A stretch of 64,000 nt of DNA, taken from Candidatus Omnitrophota bacterium (GTDB lineage: Bacteria; Omnitrophota; Gorgyraeia; Pluralincolimonadales; Pluralincolimonadaceae). A program made the position numbers and the translations under genes. The notes beneath the pieces were generated by a model that worked only from the letters and a program-made list of their open reading frames with translations, had not been told where the DNA came from and made no database searches. Positions 38,970 through 57,499 of this stretch are shown piece by piece. The stretch spans positions 77,173 through 141,172 of the forward strand of contig JBAZJG010000001.1 of NCBI GenBank assembly GCA_041651455.1. The letters run 5' to 3'. Positions within the stretch are counted from its first letter, which is position 1. The number at the start of each line of letters is the position of its first letter.

Positions 38970-40304
38970 ATGAATATAGATATTATCATACCTGCCTATT
39001 CGGAAACCGGAAAGGTATATAGGATAAACAGCGTTTTGATCAAGGGCAGGCCAATAATAGATTACACGCTTGAAGCCGCCATTAACGCGCCGTATATCAG
39101 GGGTATATATCTGATAACTGATGACAGCAGCATGCTTGAAAGATACGGATCATTAAAAAAGATAAAGGTGGTCATGCATAAGCATGAGGAAAACGGCGAT
39201 AATATAAGACTTAAGACGATACTGTCAAGCGCGCTTAAAAAGATAAAAGGCGCGCGGCCTGATCTGGCGGTGTTGTTATTAACGTCGGCACCCTTAAGAG
39301 ATGCGGGAATATTAGAATCGGCACTCAATTATGCCAGGTCGTTTGAGGAATATGACAGTATCGTCGGCGTGACAAGGTCGAGGAAATCGAGATTCGGCGT
39401 ATTGAACGTAGGCGCCAATGGGAAGACGGATTATAGCCAGGACAGGACATGTATCAGTTATACGGGCAAGGGGCAGCATTACACCGCCGCGGTAAACGGC
39501 GCACTGTATATCGTGAAGACAAATAGGCTTGGAAAGTTGAACGAAATGCTGTTATCTAGTAGAACCTACGGGTTTGAAATGGACGAAGAGGCAGGTAAGG
39601 ATATAGACTCTTCGGCGGATGTGGCGGTAGCAGAAGCTTTTCTTTCAATGAAAGAGGAACGCTTCGGACAGCATGCAAGGGGAAGGTTTAATGTGCAGCG
39701 CCTTTATATTCATGACGACAGGCAGATGGGGATAAACAGGAATGTCCTTGATGCCATGGCATACGAACGCCATTTTATGAGATATCGGAAATTCTTAAAG
39801 CGCATTTCCGCGTCGGATGACGTACTTGACATTGCATGCGGGAGTGGCTACGGCAGTGAAATATTGGCTTCGAAAGCCAGGTCGGTGACCGGAGTGGATT
39901 GCGACCCGGTCACCATAAAATATGCAGGTCGCCATCATAAGAAAAAAAACATAAATTTCAAAACATCGGCGATTGAAAAATTCAATCCCAAACGAAAGTT
40001 CGACAAAATAATCAGCGTGGAGACGATCGAACACCTTACCGACCCAGAGGGATACATGAAGAAAGCCAGGGGATGGCTCAAGCCCGGAGGACAGATATGG
40101 TTGACATGCCCGCTTTCTGGAATATGTCGGCAGGAAACCGAAAATCCTTTCCATATAAGTGAAATAACGTATGAAATGCTTAAGAGGATAATGAGGAAGT
40201 ATTTTAAGACTACAAGCTTCTATCGACTATCCGGAAAGAAAATATTCTCGGGTGACACCCTGAACAATAAGACGGCGTATATAGTCGCGAAAGGAGCTTT
40301 ATAA
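38970..40304 (+). CDS. Bifunctional fusion of an N-terminal cytidylyltransferase-like nucleotidyltransferase with a C-terminal class I SAM methyltransferase
   Basis: The N-terminus IIIPAYSETGKVYRINSVLIKGRPIIDYTLEAA has an NTP-transferase fold. The C-terminus has MTase motif I VLDIACGSGYGSEILA. The track ORF start at 38787 overlaps the upstream gene and is rejected; the chosen ATG at 38970 has the RBS aaggaagga. Confidence 0.6.
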   Translation: MNIDIIIPAYSETGKVYRINSVLIKGRPIIDYTLEAAINAPYIRGIYLITDDSSMLERYGSLKKIKVVMHKHEENGDNIRLKTILSSALKKIKGARPDLAVLLLTSAPLRDAGILESALNYARSFEEYDSIVGVTRSRKSRFGVLNVGANGKTDYSQDRTCISYTGKGQHYTAAVNGALYIVKTNRLGKLNEMLLSSRTYGFEMDEEAGKDIDSSADVAVAEAFLSMKEERFGQHARGRFNVQRLYIHDDRQMGINRNVLDAMAYERHFMRYRKFLKRISASDDVLDIACGSGYGSEILASKARSVTGVDCDPVTIKYAGRHHKKKNINFKTSAIEKFNPKRKFDKIISVETIEHLTDPEGYMKKARGWLKPGGQIWLTCPLSGICRQETENPFHISEITYEMLKRIMRKYFKTTSFYRLSGKKIFSGDTLNNKTAYIVAKGAL

Positions 40305-41638
40305 TGAAGGATATAGTCAAGTCACCTATACGGACTGACGATAATGATATGGTGCTGTCCTTGCCGATGACTGTACATATCGAACTGACATCTTCGTGTT
40401 GTTTCACATGTAGGCACTGCTATAATTTTTGGAGAAAAGAAAAGATCAACCACGTGTTCATGACAGAGGAAGGCCTCGATAAGATATTGGATGAGCTAAT
40501 AAAGAACGGGGTGATGCATGTGATATTTACCGGGGGAGAGCCTTTCATGAACAGGAAGGTGCTGTTGCGTGGTATCAAAAGGCTGAAAAGCGCCGGTTTA
40601 AGTTCGACATGCAATTCAACACTGGCCGTTTTCAACTCGATAGAAGAACTTAAGGAACTGAAGGAGGCCGGATTAGAGCACATTCTGACATCACTCAACT
40701 CATGCAGCGAAGAGACGAACGATTATCTTGTTACTAAGCGCGGCGCTCAATCTAAGATCATCAAAGGGATGCAGAACGCGATCTCAGCCGGGATACGCAT
40801 AAGCGTGAATATGATTATCTCGGAAAGTAATATAAATGATATTTACAGGACAGGCGAACTTGCAAGCAAGCTTGGAGCGAAGAAATTTTTCGGAACGAGG
40901 GTGGTACCCCATCTTTCCGGAAAGATAGAAGACCAGAAGGAATTTCTTATCTACCAAAAAGAAGCCAGGGTCATACTGGATGAGCTTATAAAGGTTCAGA
41001 ATGATTTTGCTATTCAGGTCGGGACGCTCGTCCCATTCCCATATTGCTTTGTATTCAAGGAGGAAGACAGACAAAAGTATGCCCGGTTCTATTCGCACGG
41101 TTGCCCCGCGGGGAATAAGATGATATCCATAAACGCAAACGGGGAAGCGCACGCCTGCGTCCACGAAAAACAGGGTTATGGGAACATATTGGAGATCGGA
41201 TTGAGGTCTGCCTGGAAGAACATGGAAAAATGGAGGTCCGGCGAGTATTTTCCTTCTGTTTGTAAGGAATGCGAGCTATTTGATGAATGCAATGGAGGCT
41301 GTCGCCTTGCTACTTTGGCATACAAGGGGGATATTTCATCGACTGACAACCTGAGGGTAGGATGGGCAAAAGGGAAAAAGAGAGTTGAAGATTCTGGCGA
41401 GCGGATGATATTGAAAGCAAGATACGCCGTTCCGCAAACCCTACGTTTTAGGAAGGAGAACGGGTTCTCGGTGGTAGACCGTTTTGGATCGGAAGTCCTA
41501 TGTGTGAAGGACAGGATCGCGAAAGTCCTGATGGATCATAAACTAAAGAAAACCGCATTTATCCCAGAAGAAGAAGGCATCTTGGACATAGAGACGTTAA
41601 AAACGCTCATAAATGAAAAACTTCTGGTGAAGGCATAA
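40304..41638 (+). CDS. Radical SAM / SPASM-domain protein
   Basis: The motif CCFTCRHC (Cx3Cx2C) is followed by a C-terminal SPASM-like Cys cluster CVHE...CKECELFDECNGGCR. Confidence 0.72.
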   Translation: MKDIVKSPIRTDDNDMVLSLPMTVHIELTSSCCFTCRHCYNFWRKEKINHVFMTEEGLDKILDELIKNGVMHVIFTGGEPFMNRKVLLRGIKRLKSAGLSSTCNSTLAVFNSIEELKELKEAGLEHILTSLNSCSEETNDYLVTKRGAQSKIIKGMQNAISAGIRISVNMIISESNINDIYRTGELASKLGAKKFFGTRVVPHLSGKIEDQKEFLIYQKEARVILDELIKVQNDFAIQVGTLVPFPYCFVFKEEDRQKYARFYSHGCPAGNKMISINANGEAHACVHEKQGYGNILEIGLRSAWKNMEKWRSGEYFPSVCKECELFDECNGGCRLATLAYKGDISSTDNLRVGWAKGKKRVEDSGERMILKARYAVPQTLRFRKENGFSVVDRFGSEVLCVKDRIAKVLMDHKLKKTAFIPEEEGILDIETLKTLINEKLLVKA

Positions 41639-41655
41639 CAAAAGGATATTCAAGA

Positions 41656-42339
41656 ATGAAGATAAAGCATTATGCCCTCATTCCCGCAAAGAAGGATTCA
41701 AGCCGGTGTAAAAACAAAAACTGGAGGAAATTCAGTAAAAATTGCAACCTTGTTGATTACACCGTAAAGTCGGTACCCGGGAACATGTTTGAGAAAATAA
41801 TTGTATCGACAGATAAAATAGACTACCATCCTCCGCGGCATGTATTGAAACACCTGAGAGACAGGAAATTGTCGAGAAAGGGTTCGTGCGTAAAGGACCT
41901 GATACGAATAATTATACGCGAATACGGATTAAGGGATGAGGACTATCTTTGGCTTCTTAATCCTACTTCGCCGTTTAGGGAAAAAACCGACTTTACTAGA
42001 ATTGCGGATTATATTGGCAGGTATAAGCCGGATTCGGTAATCTCGGTTATAGAAATACACCCATTCATATGGAAAGGGGCCAGCCCTTTGTTTGAGACGA
42101 GAGGGAAACGCAGGAATACGGAGAGTTTTAAGGAAAGGTATTCTGTTGAGAACGGCATGTTCTATGTGATGAATATCGGTTATTTCCGTTCTAAAAGGTC
42201 GTGGTATGGAAAGCGGTCAATGCTGTATAAGCGGCACGGTATCCTGTCGTTTGTGGACATCGATACGGAAGAGGAATTTATAGAAGCAAGAAAACTGACC
42301 GGAATAAAGGACTTCAAAAACCGGGGGAAAAGAGAATGA
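41656..42339 (+). CDS. Acylneuraminate/ulosonate cytidylyltransferase family protein (CMP-sugar synthetase)
   Basis: ALIPAKKDSSRCKNKN and NPTSPFR match the NeuA/KdsB/PseF-type motifs. Confidence 0.68.
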   Translation: MKIKHYALIPAKKDSSRCKNKNWRKFSKNCNLVDYTVKSVPGNMFEKIIVSTDKIDYHPPRHVLKHLRDRKLSRKGSCVKDLIRIIIREYGLRDEDYLWLLNPTSPFREKTDFTRIADYIGRYKPDSVISVIEIHPFIWKGASPLFETRGKRRNTESFKERYSVENGMFYVMNIGYFRSKRSWYGKRSMLYKRHGILSFVDIDTEEEFIEARKLTGIKDFKNRGKRE

Positions 42340-43205
42340 TAAGATTTAAGGACCTGAAGGATGTCTACCTTATAGGAGAAATAGGCATAAACCATAATGG
42401 CGACCTTCAGATTGCAAAGAAACTAATTGACGCTGTATACGCATGCGGATGGAAATGTGTGAAGTTTCAGAAGAGGAATCCGGATGTATGTGTTCCAGAA
42501 AGTCAGAAAAATACAAAGCGTGACACGCCTTGGGGAATGATGACATACCTGGAATACAAGAAACGAACGGAGTTCGGCAGGAAAGAATACGATTATATCG
42601 ACAAATATTGTAGGGAAAAACCGTTGAATTGGACGGCGTCAGTTTGGGATCTAGGCAGCTTTAAATTCATGAAGAAGTACGATCTTCCCTTTATTAAGCT
42701 GCCTTCCGCCAAGATAAATGACATGGAACTGGTAGAGGCTGTTGCGAAGTCCGGGATACCGGTGCTTGCATCGACCGGTATGAGCTCATTGGGCGAAATC
42801 GACAAGCTCGTTAGTATCCTTAGGAAATATTCGTGTGAATTCGCTCTTATGCATACGAATTCAAGCTACCCCACCCCGTTAGAAGAGCTTAACCTGAATT
42901 GCATCGTTACGCTTAGAAAAAGGTATGACTGTGTTATAGGTTATAGCGGCCATGAGTATAACGTGGAACCTACCGTTTACGCGTGCGTTCTGGGAGCCAA
43001 GATAATCGAAAGGCATATAACCCTTGATCATACGATGTGGGGGACAGACCAATCATCAAGCCTTGAAGTGGGCGCCATGTACCTCCTCAATAGAAGAGTG
43101 CAGCATATCGATATGATGCTGGGGAGCGGAATCAAGAAGATAAGTGCAAGCGAAAGAAAAATTATCAATAAGCTGAAGCATAACCTTTGCGAAAGGAGAA
43201 AATAA
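42336..43205 (+). CDS. NeuB-family ulosonic acid (sialic-acid-type) synthase, a short form lacking the SAF domain
   Basis: YLIGEIGINHNGDLQIAKKLID is the NeuB signature; 289 aa. Confidence 0.72.
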   Translation: MIRFKDLKDVYLIGEIGINHNGDLQIAKKLIDAVYACGWKCVKFQKRNPDVCVPESQKNTKRDTPWGMMTYLEYKKRTEFGRKEYDYIDKYCREKPLNWTASVWDLGSFKFMKKYDLPFIKLPSAKINDMELVEAVAKSGIPVLASTGMSSLGEIDKLVSILRKYSCEFALMHTNSSYPTPLEELNLNCIVTLRKRYDCVIGYSGHEYNVEPTVYACVLGAKIIERHITLDHTMWGTDQSSSLEVGAMYLLNRRVQHIDMMLGSGIKKISASERKIINKLKHNLCERRK

Positions 43206-43864
43206 TGTTGGGGCCGGATTTCAATAAACAATACGAATATGAGAACAGTTTCTACCTTACAGCGCCCATTAACAGGATTAGCAAATTTGTCACTCATCTT
43301 GATCTTTTCAGGAGGATTTCCGGATTGTCAGGAGAGATCGTGGAATGCGGCGTATTCAAAGGAGTGTCGCTGTCCAGATTGATTAAATTCAGAGCATTGT
43401 TTGAAAATCCGCAAAGTAGAAAGATAATAGCATTTGATACCTTCGGAGATTTTCCGGAAGCAAAATACAAGGCTGATGTCAAAAAAAGGCGACAATTTAT
43501 CTCAGAAGCAGGAAGCAAAAGCATAAGCAGGGATGAATTGATCTGCATCCTGAAAAAGCTGGATCTCTACCAGAACATCGAGCTCGTGGCAGGCAATATA
43601 TTGAAAACGGTGCCGCGCTACGTTTCAAGGAACAGACATCTGAAGATAGCCTTGCTGCATATAGATGTTGATCTGTATGAAGCGACGGATATATGCCTAA
43701 AGGAACTGTACCCGTTGGTCGTAAAGGGCGGGATAGTGGTATTGGATGATTACGGCGCCTTTCCCGGAGCTAATAAAGCCATTGACGATTATTTTGTGAA
43801 TAAGAAGGTCAGAATTAAAAAATACCCTTATTCCAACGCCATATCATATGTGCAAGTCGATTGA
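43205..43864 (+). CDS. TylF/MycF-family SAM-dependent O-methyltransferase
   Basis: IVECGVFKGVSLSRL and the C-terminal VVLDDYG are present, and the TAATG overlaps the upstream stop. Confidence 0.62.
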   Translation: MLGPDFNKQYEYENSFYLTAPINRISKFVTHLDLFRRISGLSGEIVECGVFKGVSLSRLIKFRALFENPQSRKIIAFDTFGDFPEAKYKADVKKRRQFISEAGSKSISRDELICILKKLDLYQNIELVAGNILKTVPRYVSRNRHLKIALLHIDVDLYEATDICLKELYPLVVKGGIVVLDDYGAFPGANKAIDDYFVNKKVRIKKYPYSNAISYVQVD

Positions 43865-44379
43865 GAAAGGGCGGTGATAAAATGAGAATACATAAGTATT
43901 ACGATCTTAAGAAGGTAAAATTGATAGTATATGATTTCGACGGTGTTTTTACCGATAATAAGGTCATTCTTATGGAAGACGGGAAAGAAGGTGTTATAGT
44001 AAACAGGTCGGATGGGCTTGCGGTATCAATCTTCAAGAAAATGGGTATTCCTCAAATTATATTGTCTACCGAAAGAAATCCCATAGTTAAGGCCAGATCG
44101 AGGAAACTTGGCATACCAGCCTTGACCTGCGTTAACGATAAGAAGAAGGATCTCTCTTCATATTGCAGGAAACTCAATATCCCGCTGCATTCCGTGGCTT
44201 ATATCGGTAATGATATCAACGACTATGAAGCGATGTTATGCGTGGGATTCCCGATAGCGCCGGCGGATGCGAACAGCCGCATAAAAGGCATAGCGGAAAT
44301 AGTAACTAAAACACGAGGCGGGGAAGGAGTTGCCCGAGAGTTACTCGATATATTTACCCGCGGAATGGGAGTATGCTGA
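43861..44379 (+). CDS. HAD-IIIA phosphatase of the KdsC family (ulosonate-phosphate phosphatase)
   Basis: IVYDFDGVFTD and GNDINDYEAM are present; the protein is about 165-172 aa. Confidence 0.7.
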   Translation: MRKGGDKMRIHKYYDLKKVKLIVYDFDGVFTDNKVILMEDGKEGVIVNRSDGLAVSIFKKMGIPQIILSTERNPIVKARSRKLGIPALTCVNDKKKDLSSYCRKLNIPLHSVAYIGNDINDYEAMLCVGFPIAPADANSRIKGIAEIVTKTRGGEGVARELLDIFTRGMGVC

Positions 44380-46193
44380 AATACGACATGGGAACAATGA
44401 GGTGTGCGGACGGCTCTTCGTTGATTTATGAAGTCGATAAGACCGCATCAATGATCGCGCTTAGGATATCACAAGAGCTTAAAAAAGATCCGATCTTCGG
44501 AGAATTAGATGAAAGGTTGCCAGGCGGGTGGTCCCTGTTTTATTTTCAGATATTAATAAAAGATAAAATATATCCGTACATACGACAAGCACACGTCATC
44601 CGCTGGTATATCGGAAACGGGATAACCATACCTGATAAAGAGAAGACCGTAACGATACCGCAATGCGGTATACTTACAGTTTTAAAAGATCATTGGGATT
44701 TCGATGATGTACCTATACGGTACGGAAGAGGTCCGCTTTCCGGATGGGATAAGGCGCTGAAAAGAACGGTAAAACGGTACAGGGATGGTTTGCTCAAGAC
44801 CTGGGAAGCGTACATATTCGGTCAGGCAAAGGAAAATGCGAAGCAGGACCTCGCCGGGACCGCCCGCACCATAGCCTGTCATTATGCTGAAGGATTTGAT
44901 CCTAACAGGCGAAATGACTTGAACTGGTATGCCGGTAGCGGGATAGACGCGAAAGACGTTTTGATATACTTTGATTGTCCGGATAATATTACCGGTGGTC
45001 CTATCGGCAAGGAAACTATCGACAAACTTGAAAGCAAAGGTTTTAGATGCGTGGCTCTCAAAAATGGCGTCGTAAATAGCATGCATTCGGCATTTTGTAA
45101 AGTACCATGTATACACCCGGACAGATATCTAAAAGCAGGCCGTGTGCGCAACCCGGTTACGGATTGGCTTGTTGAGGAAGGGAACGATCTCATCCGGAGC
45201 GTAGAATATTGGAGGTCATTTTATAAGGAATTTGGCATAAAAGTGAATTATGTAGCGGAAGAGAACCCGTATGTGAACATTCCGCAAAGGATAGCTTTCG
45301 ATGTTGATGGCGAAAACGGCGGCCTTCTTGCAGGCAAGCAAAGGTCGGAGGTGCCGTTCATATACCGTTACCTGAATGGGTATCACCCCAAGCATATATA
45401 TTTTACGTGGAATAGGAGATCCGCGTTAAACATTGAGCAAAAACATGAGAATGTAGGCAGGATAGTGGTTACCGGTTATCCTTATGGCACGCTGTGTCCG
45501 GCGAAAGATGACGCTTCATTATTGAGATCGAGAGGAGCCAAATTCATAATAGCGCTTTTTGATAATATACACGGTTCCGATTATATATATTCAACCGATG
45601 AAATGAGGCGATATTATGAGGCCTTCCTGTCGTTTATGATTGAGGACGAAACGACCGGGATAATAATAAAATCAAAGAAACCGCTTGTTATCCAAAAACT
45701 GCCTGAGATACACACGCTTCTCGAAAAGGCGGTTGCAACAGGTCGGTGCATAAGGCTTGACAGGGAGATTGGCAGGCTTCCTTTTGACGCATCCAGGAAT
45801 GCCGATCTTGCCGTGGGAGTTGGCATATCATCACCTGTGATAGAAGCGGTGATAGCCGGTTGCAAGGGGGTTCATTATGACATCACGCATTATAAAAAGC
45901 ACGTGTTCTATGAATGGGGATACGAGAAAATTATCTTCGATGATATATTGAGGCTTATTGATGCGATAAAAAGATTCAAGAAAGAGCCGTCATCGGAGCC
46001 GGGACTCGGTGATTGGTCCGGGCATATCGAGGAGCTCGACCCGTTTTGCGACAGGAAAGGAGGAGAACGGATGGGGAGTTATATGAAAATTCTCTTCGAA
46101 TCATTCAGGTCAGGCAAAGGTCGTGTGACTGCCGTAAACGACGCGGACAGGACTTATTCTCGCGAATGGGGCGATTATAAGATTGTAAAATGA
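44373..46193 (+). CDS. Hypothetical 606-aa protein; possibly a glycosyltransferase (candidate capsule-type ulosonate transferase), fold unassigned
   Basis: It is a long ORF with good coding appearance inside the operon, but no motif was recognised with confidence. Confidence 0.3.
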   Translation: MLKYDMGTMRCADGSSLIYEVDKTASMIALRISQELKKDPIFGELDERLPGGWSLFYFQILIKDKIYPYIRQAHVIRWYIGNGITIPDKEKTVTIPQCGILTVLKDHWDFDDVPIRYGRGPLSGWDKALKRTVKRYRDGLLKTWEAYIFGQAKENAKQDLAGTARTIACHYAEGFDPNRRNDLNWYAGSGIDAKDVLIYFDCPDNITGGPIGKETIDKLESKGFRCVALKNGVVNSMHSAFCKVPCIHPDRYLKAGRVRNPVTDWLVEEGNDLIRSVEYWRSFYKEFGIKVNYVAEENPYVNIPQRIAFDVDGENGGLLAGKQRSEVPFIYRYLNGYHPKHIYFTWNRRSALNIEQKHENVGRIVVTGYPYGTLCPAKDDASLLRSRGAKFIIALFDNIHGSDYIYSTDEMRRYYEAFLSFMIEDETTGIIIKSKKPLVIQKLPEIHTLLEKAVATGRCIRLDREIGRLPFDASRNADLAVGVGISSPVIEAVIAGCKGVHYDITHYKKHVFYEWGYEKIIFDDILRLIDAIKRFKKEPSSEPGLGDWSGHIEELDPFCDRKGGERMGSYMKILFESFRSGKGRVTAVNDADRTYSREWGDYKIVK

Positions 46194-46196
46194 GGA

Positions 46197-47375: not shown

Positions 47376-48415
47376 AAAAGATGTTCGTTCCGCACGAGCG
47401 GTTATCTGTATTTATAAAGAAGGTACTCCTAAATGCCGGGGTACGCGAAGATGTTGCGTATCATGTCAATGAAGGGTTAGTACAAGCGTCACTAAGGGGG
47501 GTCGATTCGCACGGTATAAGGCTATTTCCGCATTATATGGCGTCGGTAAAAGCGGGCAGGATAAATCCCGATCCCGAATATAAGTTCGAGAGGACCTCGG
47601 CCTCTACCGGAAAGTTCGACGCAGACCACACCTTCGGGCACGCCGCCGGCATAGAGTCGGCAAGGAAGGCGGTAGAGCTCGCCAAGGAAGCGGGGACGGG
47701 CAGCATAGCCGTGTTCAATTCGACCCACTTCGGCGCTGCCGCATATTTCACGCTCGAGATAGCAAAGCAAGGGATGATAGGGTTAAGCTTCACTCATGCG
47801 GATTCGCTGATGAAGACATATGCGGGCAAAAGGGCGTTCCTCGGGACGAACCCGATATCCTTCGCCGCGCCGGTGGAGGGCGAAGAACCGTTCTGCCTCG
47901 ACATGGCCACGACGCTTTATAATTTCAACAAGATAAAGCAGCTGAGGGAGCGCAAGCATCCCGCACCTGAAGGCGTAGGCGCGGATACGGAAGGCAATGA
48001 GACGACGGATGCGGATAAGATATCGATGCTGCTTCCAATGGGCGGATACAAAGGATACGGCCTTAGCCTGATGGTGGAGGTGCTTTGCGGGATACTTACC
48101 GGCATGCCATACGGCCCTAATATATCGAGCATGTTCAAGGCGCCGTTGTCGCAGAAAAGGTTCCTCGGACATTTTATCTGCGCGATGAGGATAGACTGTT
48201 TCCAGGAAGAAAAGGTCTTTAAGCGGCGCATGGCCGAATTGTTGAATGAACTGAGGAATGAGCCTCCCATGGAGAAAGGGGTACCGGTGCAGGTGGCGGG
48301 AGACCCGGAGAAGAAGGCCGCTTCGGAAAGGACGAAAGAAGGGATACCGATGGCCGCGCCGGAAGCGGAGGCCTTCATGAAGCTATCCGCCGAATACGGG
48401 GTGGAATTCATATAG
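47372..48415 (+). CDS. Ldh2-family (malate/L-lactate/sulfolactate dehydrogenase type 2) oxidoreductase
   Basis: PMGGYKGYGLSLMVEVLCGILTG matches the Ldh_2 family. The GC content returns to the high level here. Confidence 0.68.
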   Translation: MKKMFVPHERLSVFIKKVLLNAGVREDVAYHVNEGLVQASLRGVDSHGIRLFPHYMASVKAGRINPDPEYKFERTSASTGKFDADHTFGHAAGIESARKAVELAKEAGTGSIAVFNSTHFGAAAYFTLEIAKQGMIGLSFTHADSLMKTYAGKRAFLGTNPISFAAPVEGEEPFCLDMATTLYNFNKIKQLRERKHPAPEGVGADTEGNETTDADKISMLLPMGGYKGYGLSLMVEVLCGILTGMPYGPNISSMFKAPLSQKRFLGHFICAMRIDCFQEEKVFKRRMAELLNELRNEPPMEKGVPVQVAGDPEKKAASERTKEGIPMAAPEAEAFMKLSAEYGVEFI

Positions 48416-50061: not shown

Positions 50062-51104
50062 TAAGGGAAGCGCTGCTCGGCGCGGATTACAGGTTCGACG
50101 GTGCGCGGCCGCCCGCATCGCTTAGCGGCACGCAGAACGAGGCGAGGGAGCTCTTCCTCAAAGAAATCCACGCGAGGGGAAGATACATCGACGTAGAAAG
50201 ATGCCCTTTCTGCGGGGCGGCGGAGTTCACTAAGATATCGGAAAGGGACGCGAGGGGGCTGCCGTGCGAAGTGGCCGTCTGCGACGCCTGCGGCGGTTGC
50301 TTCAAGAACAGGATATTGGACCCGGAGGCGAACAGGTACCTATACGAGAAGATATCATACAAGCTTAGAGGCAAGGACCGTTCTCCCGGTGCGGTAGAAG
50401 CGCTGTTCAGGAAAAGGATAAAGGAATTCGCATACCCGAGATACGGGTTCATAAGGCATTTCGCCGAACTGGAGCAGGATATGGACCTTATCGCCGAATT
50501 CGGCTGCGGCGACGGAGCGAACCTGGTCCCGTGGAGGAATGACGGTTTCAGCGTGACAGGCATCGAGTTCGACGGCGGAATGGCCGAGTTTGGCAAAAGC
50601 AAGGGGCTCGACCTCGTTCAGGGCGATTTCATGACGCACGACCTCGGAGGGGCGCGGCCGAAGCTTATAATACTGTCGCACCTGCTTGAGCATGTATCGG
50701 ACATGGACGCGGTTTTAAACCGCATTCATTCCGTGCTCGACCCTTACGGATACCTATTCATAGAAGTGCCGGGCGTGAAAGGACAAGGCCTCGGAAGGCC
50801 GTTATCTTCGTTCGATGTTGAGCACAATTACTATTTCGACCTCGAAAGCCTTTCGTCGGCGCTGGGGAAGAACAGGTTCTCCGTGGCTTACGGAGACGAA
50901 TATATAAGGGTGATCTGCAGGCCGTCCGGCGCACAAGCCGCGGTACCGCGGAATAAAAAGTCGGGCGCGCGAAGGATACTGGACCTTTTCAGGGAAGAGG
51001 AATCGGGAAACATCAGGGCTAAGGTCATGAACAGGCTGACCGGCGCGTACTTCAAGGCGTATTATTCGGTATTATCGTCAGGAGTCGGACATGGCAAAGC
51101 GTAA
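50058..51104 (+). CDS. Class I SAM-dependent methyltransferase with an N-terminal Cys4 zinc ribbon
   Basis: CPFCG...CDACGGC is followed by motif I LIAEFGCGDGANL. Confidence 0.62.
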   Translation: MIREALLGADYRFDGARPPASLSGTQNEARELFLKEIHARGRYIDVERCPFCGAAEFTKISERDARGLPCEVAVCDACGGCFKNRILDPEANRYLYEKISYKLRGKDRSPGAVEALFRKRIKEFAYPRYGFIRHFAELEQDMDLIAEFGCGDGANLVPWRNDGFSVTGIEFDGGMAEFGKSKGLDLVQGDFMTHDLGGARPKLIILSHLLEHVSDMDAVLNRIHSVLDPYGYLFIEVPGVKGQGLGRPLSSFDVEHNYYFDLESLSSALGKNRFSVAYGDEYIRVICRPSGAQAAVPRNKKSGARRILDLFREEESGNIRAKVMNRLTGAYFKAYYSVLSSGVGHGKA

Positions 51105-51828
51105 ATGCAGGACGGTCGCAATGATACCCGCGCGCATGGGCAGCACAAGGCTCGCTATGAAGAACCTCGCGTTGATAGGCGGGAAACCGATGATCTACTA
51201 CGCGATAAAGGCGGCGAAGGATTCGGGCGTATTCGACAGGGTGGTCATAAATTCGGAAGACAGCGTATTCGCGAAGATAGCGAAGCGTTACGGCGCGGAA
51301 TTCTACCTGCGCCCGCGGGAATGGGCGACCTCGGCCGCGAAATCCGATTTCGTGGTATATGATTTCGTCAGGAATAATCCGTGCGATGTGGTCGCGTGGG
51401 TAAACCCGACGTCGCCGCTGCAGACGGCGGACGAAGTAAGGGGCGCCATGGAATATTTCGTGAAAGAGAAGCTCGATTCGATGATAACCGTCAAGGACGA
51501 GCAGGTCCATTGCGTATATAAGGGAAAGCCGGTCAATTTCAACCTGAAGGAGGTCTTCGCGCAGACGCAGGATTTGGTCCCGGTACAGCCCTTCGTATAT
51601 TCGGTGATGGCGTGGAAGACGGGAAAGTTCATGAAAGAGTTCGAAAGGAAGGGTTTTGCGTTCTTTTGCGGTAAGACGGGGTATTACCCGGTAAGCAAGC
51701 TAGCGGGCATAATAATCAAAAGGCAGGAAGACCTGATGGCCGCGGACCTTATGCTGCGGTCTATCTCAAAAAAAGGCGGGTACAAGCTGCGCTACGACAA
51801 GCTCGCCGTAAAGGGCAGGAGAGGATAA
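51091..51828 (+). CDS. Acylneuraminate/ulosonate cytidylyltransferase family protein
   Basis: VAMIPARMGSTRLAMKNL and NPTSPLQ are present. Confidence 0.68.
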   Translation: MAKRKCRTVAMIPARMGSTRLAMKNLALIGGKPMIYYAIKAAKDSGVFDRVVINSEDSVFAKIAKRYGAEFYLRPREWATSAAKSDFVVYDFVRNNPCDVVAWVNPTSPLQTADEVRGAMEYFVKEKLDSMITVKDEQVHCVYKGKPVNFNLKEVFAQTQDLVPVQPFVYSVMAWKTGKFMKEFERKGFAFFCGKTGYYPVSKLAGIIIKRQEDLMAADLMLRSISKKGGYKLRYDKLAVKGRRG

Positions 51829-51829
51829 T

Positions 51830-53182
51830 TTGGGAAAGCTCGCTTCTATAATAATCAGGACAAAGAACGAGGAGCGCTGGATAACGCAGTGCCTGCACGG
51901 CGTGTTCGAGCAGGAGTACAAGGATCTCGAGGTCATACTCGTGGATAACGAAAGCGATGACAAGACGCTCGAGAAGGCCGGGCAGTTCAAGCTTGCGAAA
52001 GTCGTGAAATGCACAGAATACCTGCCGGGTAAGGCCCTAAACATCGGAATAAGGGAATCGAAGGGGGATTATATCGTATGCCTCTCGGGCCATTGCATAC
52101 CCGTGAACTCGAAGTGGCTCGGGAACCTGCTTAAGGACCTCGATGACCCCGGGGTGGCAGGCGTATACGGCAGGCAGGAGCCGATGAGCTTCACTCCCGA
52201 TTCCGACAAGCGGGATCTTACGCTCGTCTTCGGGCTCGACAGGAAGGTCCAGCAGAAGGACAGCTTTTTCCACAACGCGAACAGCGCCATGAGGAAAGAG
52301 ACCTGGCGGAAATACCCGTTCGATGAGGCCGTCACGAATATCGAGGACAGGGTCTGGGCGAAAAAGGTCCTCGAACAGGGATACAAGATAATATATGAGC
52401 CGGAGGCGAGTGTATACCATTATCACGGTATACACCAGAACAGCAATGAACAGCGCTGTTCGAACGTCGTGAAGATAATGGAGAAGCTCCACGCGGGATT
52501 CAGCAGGAAGCCGATAGACATGGAGAAGATGGATGTCGCGGCGATAATACCGGTAAAGGGCGCGGCCAGATATATCGGGGATGCGCCGCTCATCGAATAC
52601 ACGATAAAGAGAGCGAAGGAATCGAAATATATAAATAATGTGATAGTCTCCACGGATAACGAAGAGACCGGGCAGTTGGCGAGGAAGCTGGGCGCGAACG
52701 TGCCGTTCATAAGGGACCCTTCGCTCTCGAAAGAGAATATCGACCTCGCGCAGGTCCTGCGGTATACGATGAAGAAGCTCGAAGAGTCGCGCATACTTCC
52801 AGACATCGTCGTCCTGCTGGAAGTCACGTTCCCGTTCAGGCCCGAGGGCCTGCTCGACGACATGATCGCGCAGCTCGCGGAAGGCGGGTTCGACAGCGTC
52901 GTCGCGGCGAAGAAAGAGAACAAGGCTATATGGCAGCAGAAGGACGGTGTGATATCGCAGATAGAGGAAGGCATAACCCCTAGGCAGTTCAAGGAGCCCA
53001 CGTACATTGAGTTGAAGGGTGTCGGCTGCGTGACGCATCCGGAGTTTCTCAGGGAAGGCAAGCTCCTCGGTGAGAAGGTGGGCATCTACGAACTGGACAA
53101 CCCGTATTCGCACCTCGAGGTCAGGAGCGAGGATGATTATAAGCTCGCGTCATCGCTCATAAAGGAGGTATTCGGGAGGTAA
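51830..53182 (+). CDS. Fusion of an N-terminal GT2 glycosyltransferase with a C-terminal cytidylyltransferase-like domain; apparent TTG start
   Basis: The N-terminus SIIIRTKNEERWI...VILVDNESDD matches GT2. The C-terminus AAIIPVKGAARYIGDAPL...EVTFPFRP is cytidylyltransferase-like. A TTG lies at 51830, two nt after the upstream TAA. Confidence 0.55.
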   Translation: MGKLASIIIRTKNEERWITQCLHGVFEQEYKDLEVILVDNESDDKTLEKAGQFKLAKVVKCTEYLPGKALNIGIRESKGDYIVCLSGHCIPVNSKWLGNLLKDLDDPGVAGVYGRQEPMSFTPDSDKRDLTLVFGLDRKVQQKDSFFHNANSAMRKETWRKYPFDEAVTNIEDRVWAKKVLEQGYKIIYEPEASVYHYHGIHQNSNEQRCSNVVKIMEKLHAGFSRKPIDMEKMDVAAIIPVKGAARYIGDAPLIEYTIKRAKESKYINNVIVSTDNEETGQLARKLGANVPFIRDPSLSKENIDLAQVLRYTMKKLEESRILPDIVVLLEVTFPFRPEGLLDDMIAQLAEGGFDSVVAAKKENKAIWQQKDGVISQIEEGITPRQFKEPTYIELKGVGCVTHPEFLREGKLLGEKVGIYELDNPYSHLEVRSEDDYKLASSLIKEVFGR

Positions 53183-55032
53183 TGGCTTTTTCCGGAGTTA
53201 AAAAGCTCGTATTCATCAACGGCATAAACGAGGCCGACGCTTACATGGATGGCCTTCCCGCGGAAGATGCAGCCGGCGATACGCTCCTGATAGCGATGAA
53301 CCCGTCCATCCGTGCGCGCCTGAAGAGGAGAGGGTTCCGCGTCGCCGATACCGCGGATTATTTCACGGCGGATTCCCATGTGAACACGCTGAATAAGTCG
53401 GACGAACTTGTCAAATGGTTCGAGGCGAACGCCCGGTTCGCCGATACCGGGATGGGGGTTAGCGGCGCCTACAGGGATTTTTTCATATACTGGGTAAGGT
53501 TCGCGATGCATTACTGCATCTGGGCAATAGACATGGCATCCGCGGCTATAGAAGCGCATAAGCCGGAGTCGGTATGCGCATACGGCGCGGGTGGCAAGCA
53601 GGCTGTATCGAGTTTGTATATAGAGAACAGCGAAGGTTATTTCGGCCGCCTTGTAAGGGATACCGCGAAGGCGAAAAGCGTAAGATTCATAGACCTCGGG
53701 AACGGGGGCATCGGGCCCCGCAGGGAACAGGGGCCGCGCGCGATATACATGCGGTCGCTGGTAAGGTTCATCCTGCAGAATATAAAGTTCTCTTTATGGG
53801 AGGCCTCGGTATGGGCAAAGAACATATTCCCGGGCAAGAAACCGGTATTCTTCACGACGAGGTTCTATAACCTCGACAAGCTCGCGAAGGAAGCGGTAAA
53901 GGACGGCAGCGGCAAGAGGCCGGAGATACTGAGGGGGCCGGTAATATTCACATACGGCCTGTCCGATGCGGTAATAAAATTGTTCGGCGCCGCCCATTCC
54001 GCCGCGATAATATCGCAGAAGAAGAACTTCGCGGAGCTCGTCGAAAAGATAAGGAAGGACCCATCGGTATTCTCCTATAAGGCGGTATCGTTCGCAGAGC
54101 CCGTTTCAGGGAAGATCGAAGATAATCTGGGCGACCATATAATGGGCCTCATGCTGTGGACCGTGAAACTCAATGATTTTGTCGACAGGTCGAAGGCGTC
54201 ATTGTTCGTCTCCAACGGCAACAGGGCGGACGATGTGATACTGGCTGAATTATGCGCGAGGAAAGGCGTAAGGACGTTGCTGATAAGCCACGGTTCGCAT
54301 GTCCGGCCTAAGAACGTCCCTGAGAGGATAGAATGGGGCGAGCATGGAAGGGCGCTTCTCAGGGCGCCGTTCTCGGATATCGCGCTGCAGACGCCCGTCG
54401 CGGAAGGATACGTCGATGCCTTCAAGACGGAAAGCAGGATGATCAGGACCGGCCCTCTCATATGGGGAAAACCGGTGGAGCGCAGGAAGAGCGGCGTGAG
54501 GACTATCGTGCATGCAGGCACGCCGAAGGCGGCGAACAGCTTAAGGCCGTTCGTCTACGAAACACCCGATGAATACATACGCGGCATATGCGAGCTCGCC
54601 GCGGCTGTGGAGGGGATACCCGATGCGGTGCTTATCGTGCGTTTCAGGCCGTCCTCGGATATAGGGATTGAGGATATCAGGGAACTCGTGCCATTTTCCG
54701 ATAAAGTGAAGCTCAGCACAGACGGGCCTTTTTCGGCAGCGCTCGGGGCGGCGGACCTGCTGGTAAGTTTTTCATCTACGACGATAGAGGAAGCCCTGCA
54801 GAACAGGATACCCGTCCTTCTTTACGGAGGTTCTGGGCGCTATATGCACATAGAAGCTGTCGAGGCGGGAAGCAACGGCGAAATGCCGCGGTCGGCGATA
54901 TACCATGTGAGTAAGGCCGGCGACCTTAGGCCTGCAATAGAGAAGATCCTCGGCCTAGGAACGGACGGTAAACTATTCGACGAATATATATACCCTGAAA
55001 ACGAAAGGCAGCCTCTGGAAGTGCTATTATAA
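53182..55032 (+). CDS. Hypothetical 616-aa protein (candidate glycosyltransferase, unassigned)
   Basis: It is a long in-operon ORF with no confidently recognised motif. Confidence 0.3.
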   Translation: MAFSGVKKLVFINGINEADAYMDGLPAEDAAGDTLLIAMNPSIRARLKRRGFRVADTADYFTADSHVNTLNKSDELVKWFEANARFADTGMGVSGAYRDFFIYWVRFAMHYCIWAIDMASAAIEAHKPESVCAYGAGGKQAVSSLYIENSEGYFGRLVRDTAKAKSVRFIDLGNGGIGPRREQGPRAIYMRSLVRFILQNIKFSLWEASVWAKNIFPGKKPVFFTTRFYNLDKLAKEAVKDGSGKRPEILRGPVIFTYGLSDAVIKLFGAAHSAAIISQKKNFAELVEKIRKDPSVFSYKAVSFAEPVSGKIEDNLGDHIMGLMLWTVKLNDFVDRSKASLFVSNGNRADDVILAELCARKGVRTLLISHGSHVRPKNVPERIEWGEHGRALLRAPFSDIALQTPVAEGYVDAFKTESRMIRTGPLIWGKPVERRKSGVRTIVHAGTPKAANSLRPFVYETPDEYIRGICELAAAVEGIPDAVLIVRFRPSSDIGIEDIRELVPFSDKVKLSTDGPFSAALGAADLLVSFSSTTIEEALQNRIPVLLYGGSGRYMHIEAVEAGSNGEMPRSAIYHVSKAGDLRPAIEKILGLGTDGKLFDEYIYPENERQPLEVLL

Positions 55033-55043: not shown

Positions 55044-56768
55044 ATGAAAGACAGCAGAAGACGATATAAAGGTTTCGAAATCCTGGATTGCACCGTCAGG
55101 GACGGCGGTTACCTCAACGATTGGAAGTTCGACAAGGCGCTCGTCAGGGAGGTATACAGGGCCGTTTCGAAAGCGGGTGTGCCCGTCATCGAGATAGGGT
55201 TCAGGGGGACGGATGAGCATTTCGACAGGAAGAAGTACGGCCCCTGGAGGTTCTCGGACGAGTCGTTGCTGCGCGAGACGATCGAAGGGATAGACGGCGC
55301 GAAGCTCGCGCTGATGGGTGACTTCGGCAGGATATCGGCGGACGACTTTGTCCCGCGCGACGAGAGCGTTGTCGATATCGTGAGGATAGCGGCCCATAAG
55401 AACGATATAGCGGAAACTATCAAGACCCTCGGCAGGATAAAGAAGAAGGGTTACAAGACCTCGCTTAACGCGATGGGATACAGCAACTACACGAAATCGG
55501 AACGGAAGAGGTTCATCTCGATGGTCAGGAAGGCGGGCCTCGATTATGTATATGCGGTGGACAGCTACGGTTCGGTCTTCCCGAACGAGATAGAAGGGCT
55601 CATCAGCCCGCTGCTCGGCATACGCGGGACGAAGGTCGGGTTCCATCCGCATAACAGCCTGCAGATGGCGTTCGCGAACACGCTTGAGGCGGTCCGCTGC
55701 GGCGCGGATATAGTCGATTCGACGTTCTACGGCATTGGCCGCGGGGCGGGCAACCTGCCGACCGAAATAATCGTGCTCTATAAGGAGCTTTTAGGCGATA
55801 AGAAATATAACGCGATTCCGGTCCTCAATTGCATAGACAGGTACTTCCTGCCGATGAGGAAGGAGATCGACTGGGGATACCAACTGCCGTTCATGCTCTC
55901 AGGGATGTACAAATGCCACCCGAACTACGCGAGCGGCCTGATAAATTACAGGGAATATACGATAGACGAGATATGCAAGGCGATGGAGGCGATAGAGAAG
56001 AAGAACCCGTTAGGATACAAGCCGGAGATATTAAAGGAGATCATCGAGGACGGGCTTATCGGAAAGCTGAAGGCCTCCTCCGTAGCGAAAAAGGCCGGTA
56101 AGGCCAGGAAAGCCGGGATACCGGTACCGTACGCGGGCAGGCATGAGGGAAGGGATTTCCTGGTACTTGCCAACGGGCCCGGCCTGAAGGATAACAGGGA
56201 GAAGATAGAGGCGTTCATAAGGAAGACGGACCCCGTCATACTCGGCGCGAACAACCTCTCGGGGCTGTTCGTCCCGCATTATCACGCGTTCAACAACAAG
56301 AGGAGGTTCACGGATTACGCCGGTACCGTTTCCGGTAAGTCGAAACTCCTCATAAGCGAATATTTCCCGGAGGAGTTCATAAGGGAATACACGGACAGCG
56401 ACTACGAGAAACTGTATTACAACGATGTCCTGAACGCTCATTTCGGCATCGATGACGGGGTCATCCGTACGAATTGCAGGACGATATCGGTCCTGCTTAT
56501 CGGCGCGGCGATAGTGATGGGCGCCAGGAGGATATTCGTCGCCGGGATGGACGGCTACCTCGGCCCGGGCACCGAAGGCAAGGCCCTTTATTACAACGAG
56601 AAAGACGAGAAGACCGATAAGCAGATGATCATAGAGAGGCACATGTGGTGCCAGAAGTTCCTGGAGGAGATAGAGGCATACCTGCAGAAGAACGGCAGGG
56701 AGGGTATCCATATCATAACGCCCACGACCTACAAGGCGTTCTATAAAAGCGTGGAAAATTACATATGA
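55044..56768 (+). CDS. Two-domain protein: an N-terminal HMGL-like (aldolase/pyruvate carboxyltransferase TIM-barrel) domain and a C-terminal GT42/Maf(DUF115)-like ulosonic-acid transferase-like domain
   Basis: The N-terminus ILDCTVRDGGY has the DTTLRDG-like motif. The C-terminus FLVLANGPGLKDNREKIEAFI resembles the Cst-II/Maf motif (AGNGPSL). Confidence 0.4.
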   Translation: MKDSRRRYKGFEILDCTVRDGGYLNDWKFDKALVREVYRAVSKAGVPVIEIGFRGTDEHFDRKKYGPWRFSDESLLRETIEGIDGAKLALMGDFGRISADDFVPRDESVVDIVRIAAHKNDIAETIKTLGRIKKKGYKTSLNAMGYSNYTKSERKRFISMVRKAGLDYVYAVDSYGSVFPNEIEGLISPLLGIRGTKVGFHPHNSLQMAFANTLEAVRCGADIVDSTFYGIGRGAGNLPTEIIVLYKELLGDKKYNAIPVLNCIDRYFLPMRKEIDWGYQLPFMLSGMYKCHPNYASGLINYREYTIDEICKAMEAIEKKNPLGYKPEILKEIIEDGLIGKLKASSVAKKAGKARKAGIPVPYAGRHEGRDFLVLANGPGLKDNREKIEAFIRKTDPVILGANNLSGLFVPHYHAFNNKRRFTDYAGTVSGKSKLLISEYFPEEFIREYTDSDYEKLYYNDVLNAHFGIDDGVIRTNCRTISVLLIGAAIVMGARRIFVAGMDGYLGPGTEGKALYYNEKDEKTDKQMIIERHMWCQKFLEEIEAYLQKNGREGIHIITPTTYKAFYKSVENYI

Positions 56769-57499
56769 AAATAATCGGGGTAATACCGGCGCGTTTCAAG
56801 TCATCGAGGTTTCCCGGCAAGCCGTTGGCGGATATATGCGGCAAGCCGCTCGTATGGTGGGTATACAAACAGGCCGTGAAGGTAAAGGAACTCGGAAAGG
56901 TCTATGTCGCCACAGATGACAGCAGGATAGCCCGGGAATGCAAAAAGCTCGCGATACCGTATGTGATGACATCGGGCAGGCACCCGACAGGCACGGACAG
57001 GGTCGCCGAGGTCGCGCGGAAGGTCAAAGCGGATATTTACGTGAATATACAGGGGGATGAACCCCTGCTGAAACCCGCTATGATAAGAAGCGCGATAGGA
57101 CCGCTTTTGAAAAAGAATTCCGGATTCGATGTTACGAACCTGATGTCTTTAATACGCAACCCGAAGGAAGTACCGAGCCCGACCGTCCCGAAGGTCGCGG
57201 TGAACGCGAAGGGTGACGCCGTATTCCTCTCGAGGGCGCCGATACCTTATCCGAAGAGGGGCGGCAACGCGCAGTATTATAAGCAGGTCTGCGTATACGG
57301 GTTCAGGAGGAAGGCATTATTGGCGTTCGGCGGGCTCCGGAGGGGGGCTTCCGAGCTTATAGAGGATATCGAGCTTCTGCGTTTCATAGAGAACGGCATA
57401 AAGGTCAGGATGATCGAAGTGAAGAGCGGCAGCATGGCGGTAGATACGCCTGAGGACCTCGAGGCGGTAAAAAAGATAATATGCAAAAGCCGGGCGTAA
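56765..57499 (+). CDS. kdsB: 3-deoxy-manno-octulosonate cytidylyltransferase (CMP-Kdo synthetase)
   Basis: IIGVIPARFKSSRFPGKPL, HPTGTDRVAEV and IQGDEPL are present. Confidence 0.85.
   Translation: MKIIGVIPARFKSSRFPGKPLADICGKPLVWWVYKQAVKVKELGKVYVATDDSRIARECKKLAIPYVMTSGRHPTGTDRVAEVARKVKADIYVNIQGDEPLLKPAMIRSAIGPLLKKNSGFDVTNLMSLIRNPKEVPSPTVPKVAVNAKGDAVFLSRAPIPYPKRGGNAQYYKQVCVYGFRRKALLAFGGLRRGASELIEDIELLRFIENGIKVRMIEVKSGSMAVDTPEDLEAVKKIICKSRA

Follow-up and report, generated by a model that had tools for sequence, protein, structure and literature searches.

CMP-activated acid sugars (Kdo and the sialic-acid-like nonulosonic acids, NulOs) influence the surfaces of bacteria, their susceptibility to phages and their recognition by the immune system. 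In environmental bacteria these sugars are far more diverse than known genetics explains, an example being the CMP-linked higher-carbon ulosonic acids which have been detected by mass spectrometry and whose genes are unassigned. Fusions of a cytidylyltransferase (CT) with a tailoring domain are known, as in NeuA with a C-terminal O-acetylesterase, and in fosfomycin biosynthesis (Fom1/Fom3) cytidylylation gives a handle which is recognised by a B12 radical S-adenosylmethionine (SAM) methyltransferase. EpaA is a fusion of a CTP_transf_3 domain with an aldo-keto reductase which, together with EpaB, directs the conversion of pseudaminic acid (Pse) to 8-epi-pseudaminic acid (8ePse) (PMC12053666), and a similar fusion is found in Moritella (PMC7371886). 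By mass spectrometry, tailoring has been seen to take place on the CMP-sugar (bioRxiv 10.64898/2026.04.20.719630). The present study concerns five CT domains, two of them in fusion proteins, encoded at positions 38970–57499 of a 64,000-nt window (the whole stretch of DNA that was analysed) from Candidatus Omnitrophota bacterium (GCA_041651455.1, contig JBAZJG010000001.1). All long ORFs (open reading frames) of the window are on the forward (+) strand, as are all features described below. Near-identical database entries carry protein names that point to Candidatus Omnitrophota, and one protein with 99% identity sits on a MAG (metagenome-assembled genome) labelled 'uncultured Planctomycetia'.

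In the explanation that we favour, and to which we give about an even chance, the region makes up the variable part of a surface-polysaccharide locus which depends on an ABC transporter (Wzm/Wzt), a mosaic of three acid-sugar modules (A, 37.2–46.2 kb; B, 46.2–55.0 kb; C, from 55.0 kb), in which stand-alone enzymes would activate the sugars, while the fused CT-like domains would bind an activated sugar for methylation or transfer.

Identification of five cytidylyltransferase-like domains

Five CT-family profile hidden Markov models (HMMs) were searched against every stop-to-stop ORF, on both strands. They match exactly five ORFs in the window, so that the scan bears out both the count and the coordinates given in an earlier description made from the letters alone (hereafter the sequence-only reading). 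CT1 (38970–39665, aa 1–232 of its protein) is fused to a methyltransferase and CT4 (52517–53182, aa 230–450) to a GT2-fold domain; CT2 (41656–42339) and CT3 (51091–51828) are stand-alone NeuA-like proteins, and CT5 (56765–57499) is a KdsB (CMP-Kdo synthetase). Scores for the Pfam model CTP_transf_3, which represents the NeuA/KdsB fold, are 160.4 bits for CT5, 75.7 for CT3, 45.6 for CT4 (aa 248–360 of the fusion), 32.0 for CT2 and 21.1 for CT1. The last is 1.5 bits below the cut-off of 22.6; CT1 is nonetheless confirmed as a CT domain, since NCBIfam PseF aligns with the whole of it (aa 6–224, E 3.5e-10), as it also does with the whole of CT2, and since its family profile matches the N. meningitidis CMP-Neu5Ac synthetase (NmCSS) with an hhalign probability of 99.5%.

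In profile comparisons with NmCSS or E. coli KdsB, hhalign probabilities of 96–100% were obtained for the CT1, CT3, CT4 and CT5 families. CT2, taken as a single sequence, reached only 51% with NmCSS; with the CT1 and CT3 profiles it reached 96%, and it is tied to the family by its matches to NeuA-type PDB entries and to NCBIfam models. CT5 is the sole domain which passes a curated family cut-off, CT1–CT4 scoring 40–86 bits against NCBIfam PseF, all under its cut-off of 205.7. Membership of the MobA/IspD type was considered and rejected: NTP_transf_3 scores are weaker than those of CTP_transf_3 and, except for CT5, below cut-off, and the profile comparisons, like the Pfam scores, place the domains with NeuA/KdsB, in agreement with the sequence-only reading. 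Related loci of about 21 kb routinely carry several CT-like domains (two in 23 loci, three in 19 and four in 4). The bare count of five is for this reason less remarkable, and is the upper end of a pattern, not an outlier.

Catalytic residues of the five domains

All CT families were aligned with NmCSS (from a 1eyr-based alignment) and with E. coli KdsB, and the frequency of each residue was determined at the key positions, which are numbered here as in NmCSS; the KdsB reference sequence serves as a guide only. In NmCSS, Arg12 and Lys21 are important catalytic residues, the R165A and Q166A variants are inactive or strongly reduced, and Gln104 has its main effect on sugar binding, while D209A and D211A are crippling, with a kcat 15,000-fold lower in the mutant with measurable kinetics (PMC2901514). 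The Mg-binding acidic pair is Asp209/Asp211 in NmCSS and Asp98/Asp225 in KdsB.

CT5 is a canonical KdsB with every catalytic residue present, including Arg12/Lys21 of the loop that binds the CTP phosphates and the acidic pair, and with the motifs IPARFKSSRFPGKPL, QGDEP and VDTPEDL. It scores 288.8 bits against NCBIfam NF009905 (cut-off 255) and 156.8 bits against the second curated KdsB model of the pair NF009905 / TIGR00466 (cut-off 155.2), and its hhalign probability against E. coli KdsB is 100%. CT2 keeps the catalytic set (Ser15, Lys21-Asn22, NPTSPF, and the acidic pair in DIDTEEEF) except for a Lys at Arg12, which is conserved in its small subfamily; it is probably active, as far as its residues indicate. 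CT3 has an intact CTP loop (IPARMGSTRLAMKN), with R12, S15, K21 and N22 at 100% in its family, and the NPTSP motif is kept. The acidic pair is absent: the family has Ile (86%) at D209 and Lys (95%) at D211, in agreement with the full-length profile alignment to 1eyr, and a family-wide Thr at Arg165. As part of the explanation given above, and at the same even chance, CT3 would be a non-standard activator, with the CTP loop present and a Lys at the usual site of the catalytic Mg.

The two fused domains have both lost residues of the CTP-phosphate loop. In the window copy of CT1, Arg12 and Lys21 are replaced by Tyr and Ile (R12Y, K21I), so that the loop reads PAYSETGKVYRIN; Gln104 is Leu (Q104L) and the RRQDQP motif is lost, while the acidic pair is kept (DID). 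Its family has 78% Arg at position 12 and 89% Lys at position 21, and a canonical consensus (ARSGSKGIYxKN, PTAPLRT, YRRQDQP, VDIDTPYD), but four other members are degenerate in a like manner. In CT4, positions 14–21, i.e. eight residues of the loop, are deleted in 20/20 aligned sequences (consensus IPV[KR]G followed by PL..YT), which leaves one basic residue; HMMER alignments to 1qwj and 9t4z agree, as does the short spacing between beta1 and the first helix in the AF2 model. Glu replaces Gln104 (E104, 100%, within LEVTFPFRP), the acidic pair is Glu-x-Arg (E209 and R211, both 100%), and Arg165 (100%) and Gln166 (80%) are kept. The majority of these states are also found in 43 homologues with identities as low as 40%, and over the same range many pocket-type residues are invariant (STD Asp, Arg71, E104, the FPFR motif, PRQ and E-x-R).

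To judge from this map, the standard catalytic site, which takes two substrates and depends on Mg, is present in CT2 and KdsB only. A loss of conserved Arg, Lys or Asp residues, which the sequence-only reading had named as grounds for its refutation, is seen in CT1, CT3 and CT4, three of the five and both fused domains among them. The proposal that several ulosonic acids are activated fares better, in that three separate modules make more than one acid sugar plausible.

The GT2-CT4 fusion and its cassette

The GT2-CT4 protein begins with a TTG codon at 51830, one nucleotide from the stop of CT3; this start is supported by the lengths of its homologues (445–471 aa) and by an upstream AGGAG. Among 8000 candidates scored, 3841 match at E <= 1e-5, and the best 120 are all 445–471 aa long, all have both Pfam domains and are 62–96% identical. 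In a scan of one genome per species, the fusion was found in 43 genomes, drawn from more than ten phyla, the hosts including Omnitrophota, Planctomycetota (including Scalindua), the candidate phyla radiation (CPR; Uhrbacteria and Vogelbacteria), Saganbacteria, Thermodesulfovibrionales, Desulfobacterota, a Desulfotomaculaceae firmicute, Cyanobacteria including Prochlorococcus, Legionellaceae, Sedimenticolaceae and SAR11. Since GT2-CT4 is 62–96% identical over 120 clusters, is present in 43 species genomes and has residues invariant down to 40% identity, the fused domains are, on the evidence of conservation, functional proteins and not decayed genes.

The GT2-fold domain (51830–52444, aa 1–205) was delimited by Pfam, alignments and Foldseek. 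It matches PF00535 with 89.5 bits and has a GT-A fold with the N-terminal nucleotide-binding Asp (Asp39 of VDN, invariant); its Foldseek matches include PcManGT, TarP and WrtF. It lacks a DxD motif: S-G-H aligns to the D-A-D of the archaeal mannosyltransferase 6yv7, and S86, H88 and C89 of S-G-H-C are invariant in 43 sequences. This loss would fit a monophosphate (CMP) donor, which needs no DxD-bound metal. Cys21, His148, His197, His199 and His202 are also invariant or nearly so across the 43 homologues, and the conserved His and Cys residues hint at a metal site, possibly at chemistry other than ordinary glycosyl transfer. In the AF2 model, the GT-A domain is followed by a CMP-nonulosonate-synthetase fold, with target-normalised TM scores of 0.70–0.77 to 6ifd, 9t4z, 9ftc and 1eyr.

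GT2-CT4 is accompanied by a recurrent set of genes. The order of module B is a GFO/IDH/MocA oxidoreductase (46197–47375), an Ldh_2-family 2-hydroxyacid dehydrogenase (47372–48415), which forms with the former the redox pair of the cassette, a B12-binding radical SAM enzyme (48415–50061), a class I methyltransferase (50058–51104; these four by Pfam and NCBIfam), CT3, GT2-CT4 and a 616-aa protein, U616 (53182–55032). Of 45 non-redundant loci carrying GT2-CT4, 37 have CT3, 35 the GFO enzyme, 34 Ldh_2 and 28 U616; CT3, GFO and Ldh_2 occur jointly in 30/45. The gene order varies, CT3 being directly upstream of GT2-CT4 in 21/45, and the B12 radical SAM enzyme (10/45) and the methyltransferase (9/45) are optional inserts. 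KdsB-like genes lie near the cassette in 16/45 loci. Where flanks of 10 kb were complete, an HMGL-like gene was seen in 4/25 loci and NeuB in 5/25, and NeuB was accordingly rejected as an obligatory partner. GFO/Ldh_2/CT3/GT2-CT/U616 is a mobile cassette which reaches over more than ten phyla, with SAR11, CPR and anammox bacteria (Brocadiaceae and Scalindua MAGs) among the carriers.

In five loci from Rhodospirillaceae, SAR11 and Prochlorococcus, GT2-CT4 belongs to a variant cassette. In place of Ldh_2, CT3 and U616, this has a stand-alone CT of KdsB-like or CT3-like type, another GFO enzyme, a KdsA-like DAHP_synth_1 enzyme and a shikimate-dehydrogenase-like protein. The KdsA-like synthase ties the GT2-CT fusion to 3-deoxy-ulosonic-acid chemistry. 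Neither the GFO/Ldh_2/CT cassette nor the GT2-CT fusion was found described in the literature searched.

U616 has no usable family in Pfam and NCBIfam scans, which gave one faint sub-threshold match to Pfam DUF6716; a profile search of the PDB returned nothing at E <= 10, and all database names are 'hypothetical'. Its AF2 model, built with 32 homologues, has a GT-B fold (pLDDT 90, pTM 0.92), and the top Foldseek matches are NDP-sugar 2-epimerases, including the hydrolysing NeuC. The sequence signature and catalytic acid/base residues of that family (Epimerase_2, NeuC/WecB) were not found in U616. On the strength of the model, U616 would be either a glycosyltransferase or a NeuC-like NDP-sugar hydrolase/epimerase. 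The idea that U616 and two other proteins of the locus, U606 and U556, are detectable paralogues was dropped, as BLAST found nothing and hhalign gave probabilities of 7–28%, for a shared C-terminal motif only.

The CT1-methyltransferase fusion and module A

The methyltransferase half of the CT1 fusion (39666–40304) belongs to the class I SAM methyltransferases (Pfam Methyltransf_11/25/23 and alignment) and is fully conserved across the family (LDIACGSGYGS, ETIEH and NPFH). The start at 38970 is supported by one 444-aa cluster which is 100% identical. About 24 clusters cover both halves, out of 5.8 billion sequences, and no description of the architecture was found in the literature searched. 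An exhaustive search with CT2 gave only 8 representatives at E < 1e-30, of which 3 are fusions of a CT2-like domain, with canonical residues, to a methyltransferase; these form a second lineage of the same architecture. A database search for the fusion architectures, which the sequence-only reading had called for, thus recovered both as full-length homologues on independent contigs, and their number rules out mis-assembly or read-through as the origin of the fusions. That the fusions are unusual holds for the CT-methyltransferase, which is rare; it does not for GT2-CT, with its thousands of homologues, even if that family is without study in the literature searched.

CT1 lies in module A, the order of which is a GDSL-type esterase/acyltransferase (37225–37980, Pfam), a radical SAM/SPASM enzyme (37937–38968), the CT1 fusion, a second radical SAM/SPASM enzyme (40304–41638; both by Pfam and NCBIfam), CT2, two genes after the fusion, a short NeuB-type synthase (42336–43205), a TylF-type O-methyltransferase (43187–43864, Pfam), a KdsC/Kdn-9-P-phosphatase-like HAD protein (43861–44379) and the 606-aa U606 (44373–46193). 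The NeuB-type synthase has 289 aa and no Pfam domain beyond NeuB, and scores 223 bits against the NCBIfam NeuB model, below its cut-off. The HAD protein is also below cut-off for Kdn-9-P phosphatase (104.5 bits) and KdsC (97.9 bits). U606 matches, weakly and at its C-terminus, the uncharacterised family 'polysaccharide biosynthesis PFTS motif protein' (TIGR04417, 29.6 bits), and its C-terminal motif gives a weak hhalign match to U616. The CT1 protein combines a NeuA-like and a sugar-modifying domain in one polypeptide and adjoins NeuB, HAD and TylF genes, both here and in relatives. Two such relatives were looked up: the short NeuB, B12 radical SAM enzymes and a protein of about 637 aa are present in both loci, and one of them has TylF, HAD and extra stand-alone CTs.

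Module A has a GC content of 42–49%, compared to 55% elsewhere, within a low-GC block spanning 34000–47000. The DNA of a sibling metagenome-assembled genome (MAG) is 94.5% identical only from 46647 onward, with the breakpoint inside the GFO gene. Since this breakpoint coincides with the low-GC block, module A, with CT1 and CT2, was swapped by recombination. Between its U616 and HMGL-like genes, the sibling MAG further carries an insertion of 1.77 kb (L006:13202–14972).

Proposed roles and alternative explanations

The homology, the residue states and their conservation, the gene neighbourhoods and the folds are observed; which substrates are handled, that CT1 and CT4 bind a sugar and how the steps follow one another are inferred. 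In module A, which would be a recent acquisition, the short NeuB and the KdsC/Kdn-9-P-phosphatase-like HAD would make a Kdn-like or Kdo-like ulosonic acid, which CT2 would activate with CTP, and which TylF, the methyltransferase of the CT1 fusion and the two SPASM radical SAM enzymes would tailor. In module B, the GFO oxidoreductase and the Ldh_2 dehydrogenase would make or reshape a keto-acid sugar, to be activated by CT3, possibly by a non-standard, Lys-assisted mechanism, and processed or transferred by GT2-CT4 and U616. In module C, an HMGL-like aldolase and KdsB would lead to CMP-Kdo or a Kdo-like acid, with tailoring by B12 radical SAM enzymes. CT1 and CT4 would then be binding modules which present a CMP-linked sugar to the methyltransferase or GT2-like domain to which they are fused, i.e. 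they would recognise, then modify or transfer, in place of activating, then modifying. This role is the most plausible one for them since the triphosphate grip is lost but the fold and many pocket residues are kept, and a NulO context is provided by NeuB and HAD in module A and by the KdsA-like synthase of the variant cassette. Further support comes from the stand-alone CT beside each fusion of the window, from EpaA as a precedent for a CT joined to a tailoring domain, and from the mass-spectrometric observation of tailoring on CMP-sugars.

A number of observations weigh against this explanation. All activity in these families is inferred from sequence, and the AF2 model of GT2-CT4 is of moderate quality (pLDDT 77, pTM 0.48), with residues 364–395 poorly defined. 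The alignment of the CT4 loop is ambiguous, so that the surviving Lys/Arg corresponds to either Arg12 or Lys21, and CT4 could, with E104, E209 and this basic residue, bind Mg-CTP in an unforeseen way. The Lys of CT3 or the Arg of CT4 at Asp211 could also replace the metal, in which case cytidylyl transfer might persist. CT1 keeps DID and most of its family is canonical, so that 'activate then methylate' may be true there, and one of the two CT1 relatives looked up shows no other CT in its locus. U616 may be a hydrolysing epimerase and not a transferase. Lastly, KdsB may simply be a housekeeping enzyme for the Kdo of the lipid A-core. It lies, however, inside an O-polysaccharide/capsule-type locus beside the HMGL-like aldolase, and KdsB-like genes are near 16/45 cassettes; its sugar may therefore not be lipid-A-core Kdo.

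The sequence-only reading took the fusions as channels, in which a sugar is activated and then transferred or methylated by the same polypeptide. We consider this unlikely here because both fused CTs have lost CTP-binding residues, the GT2 half is without DxD and a separate stand-alone CT adjoins each fusion. A broader version, in which all five domains are active CMP-ulosonate synthetases for different sugars or intermediates, with the fusions channelling the product, appears improbable on the same grounds, as three of the five, including both fused copies, are without residues whose mutation cripples NmCSS, and each fusion in the window has a stand-alone CT beside it. The homology of all five to NeuA/KdsB does speak for it, as do the canonical consensus of the CT-methyltransferase family, the canonical residues of the second, CT2-like lineage, and the strong purifying selection on CT3 and CT4, which implies that their odd residues are functional. 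Some of these oddities are complementary: CT3 has R12 and K21 but Thr at 165, while CT4 has no loop but keeps Arg165 (100%) and Gln166 (80%). This would be expected if CT3 and CT4 formed an obligate heterodimer with one composite site, CT3 giving the CTP loop and CT4 the Arg165/Gln166 clamp for the sugar carboxylate, so that an activating site is docked onto the GT2 domain. Arg165 presumably reaches in from the partner subunit in the 1EYR structure, and CT3 accompanies GT2-CT4 in 37/45 loci, is directly upstream in 21 and ends one nucleotide from it here. Such a dimer is unlikely, given that neither partner supplies the Asp209/Asp211 pair, that no CT3 is seen near the fusion in 8/45 loci and that the partner in the variant cassette is a KdsB-like CT.

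The binding role that we prefer for CT1 and CT4 also has to be set against the possibility that both are structural relics, acting as scaffold or in oligomerisation only, the methyltransferase and GT2 halves alone being of importance. Several CT-methyltransferase members indeed combine a degenerate CT half with an invariant methyltransferase half, and AF2 gives no defined interdomain arrangement for GT2-CT4, as reflected by its pTM. The invariance of the CT4 pocket-type residues down to 40% identity exceeds the needs of a scaffold, however, and CT1 keeps DID and an overall match of PseF length, which makes this a distinctly unlikely account. Least probable of all would be a non-ulosonic cassette: the product of CT3/CT4 would be a phospho-alcohol or hydroxy-acid linked to CDP or CMP, and U616 would add it to the polymer as a phosphotransferase of the TagF/TarL kind. 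In structure searches U616 matches 2-epimerases best, and not TagF, the variant cassette contains a KdsA-like synthase, and known members of CTP_transf_3 act on 2-ulosonic acids. A phosphonate/CDP-alcohol pathway, which the combination of HMGL-like, B12 radical SAM and CT genes had brought to mind, was likewise rejected, as Pfam scans of the listed window genes gave no PEP mutase (PEP, phosphoenolpyruvate) or alditol-phosphate genes, which also counts against the phospho-alcohol alternative.

A more specific and speculative proposal for the cassette (U616, GFO, Ldh_2, CT3 and GT2-CT4), which we regard as a long shot, is that it encodes an undescribed PEP-independent dehydrogenase route to a CMP-activated 2-ulosonic acid, spread by horizontal transfer. 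The NeuC-like GT-B protein would free an aldose from an NDP-sugar, the GFO enzyme would oxidise C1, and Ldh_2 would oxidise C2 of the aldonate to give the 2-keto acid; the CT without the Mg-binding Asp pair would activate the latter, and the sugar would be transferred by the GT2 that has no DxD and is fused to a CT-like 'CMP-sugar reader' without CTP loop.

Genomic context

The start of the window is occupied by housekeeping genes (miaB-like, miaA, hflX, hrcA-grpE-dnaK-dnaJ and others). The miaB-like gene (3483–5519) has an unusual architecture, a MiaB/RimO-like radical SAM methylthiotransferase (UPF0004 and Radical_SAM) with TPR repeats and a C-terminal peptidoglycan-binding SPOR domain. At 22–3360, in a stretch of 41% GC, lies a 1112-aa P-loop protein which PADLOC assigns to the Avs2-type antiviral STAND NTPases (E 4.6e-89); the match begins at profile position 348, and the N-terminal effector part is probably upstream of the window.

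The polysaccharide locus begins at about 22 kb with two UDP-sugar 6-dehydrogenases, RmlA/B/D, aminotransferases, a WbpB/E/D-like set and a NusG/RfaH-like gene. Within 22373–35044, RmlA/B/D (no RmlC was seen) are found together with a WbpA/B/E/D-like set for 2,3-diacetamido uronic acid, and the NusG/RfaH-like antiterminator is at 31753; these genes likely account for the backbone sugars of the same polymer and for its regulator. They are followed by Wzm, an ABC-2 permease (35066–35950, Pfam ABC2_membrane), and Wzt, an ATPase with a C-terminal extension (35955–37238, Pfam ABC_tran). This export pair adjoins glycosyltransferases and sugar-precursor genes, and defines the type of locus.

Module C starts with an HMGL-like (DRE-TIM) aldolase domain followed by an extension of about 300 aa (55044–56768, Pfam), which resembles 4-hydroxy-2-oxovalerate aldolase (NCBIfam, 123 bits, below cut-off) and could, as a pyruvate-dependent synthase, make a 3-deoxy-ulosonic acid. 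Six other loci have both HMGL-like and KdsB-like genes, directly adjacent in three of them, and the pairing is seen in other phyla. The genes at 57481–63805 are the rest of module C and assembly enzymes: a B12 radical SAM enzyme (57481–58977), U556, a GT2 (60401–61330), a further B12 radical SAM enzyme (61327–62835) and a further GT2 (62861–63805), the enzymes being assigned by Pfam. The ORF of U556 (58734–60404) shares 244 nt with the preceding B12 radical SAM gene. On the source contig the gene is called from a start about 234 nt further downstream (478 aa), which places the real start probably near 58968. With these, the polysaccharide locus contains three B12-binding (48415–50061, 57481–58977 and 61327–62835) and two SPASM radical SAM enzymes, which suggests C-methylation or other radical tailoring of sugars, and the set could relate to the higher-carbon ulosonic acids mentioned above.

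Significance and comparison with known systems

As this locus shows, a tally of 'cytidylyltransferase' annotations gives too high a number of activating enzymes. What appears to be new here, as far as can be judged from sequence, is the presence of conserved, catalytically altered CT-fold domains in tailoring and transfer proteins, together with a widespread cassette without known function. The latter is 62–70% identical across phyla, and its carriers include some of the most abundant bacteria of the sea; we found no published study of it, and it is a target for heterologous expression and nucleotide-sugar profiling.

Fold and family are common to CT1–CT4 and the NeuA family (1EYR, 1QWJ, 6IFD, 9T4Z and 9FTB). 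At the catalytic positions, CT2 differs from the latter by the conservative R12K only, and CT3 shares the CTP loop and NPTSP; the differences lie in Ile/Lys and Thr165 for CT3, in the loss of eight loop residues and Glu/Arg for CT4, and in Tyr/Ile for CT1. CT5 has every motif of KdsB and passes the curated cut-off, but its gene is beside the HMGL-like aldolase and not with kdsA/kdsC/waaA. Like the ABC-transporter-dependent O-antigen and capsule systems with Kdo-type residues (WbbB GT99, KpsC/KpsS GT107), the locus combines Wzm/Wzt with genes for CMP-ulosonate supply. The likeness to Fom1/Fom3 is that of CT-like domains beside three B12-binding radical SAM enzymes, and makes a CMP handle for tailoring plausible; it is an analogy only, as Fom1/Fom3 involves another nucleotidyltransferase family and phosphonates instead of sugars, and PEP mutase is absent here. 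The EpaA-like fusions likewise join a NeuA-like domain to a NulO-modifying enzyme within a NulO locus, an architectural likeness which does not imply that the partner domains are homologous: in the window the CT is joined to a class I methyltransferase or to a GT2-fold domain, and the CT halves have lost catalytic residues.

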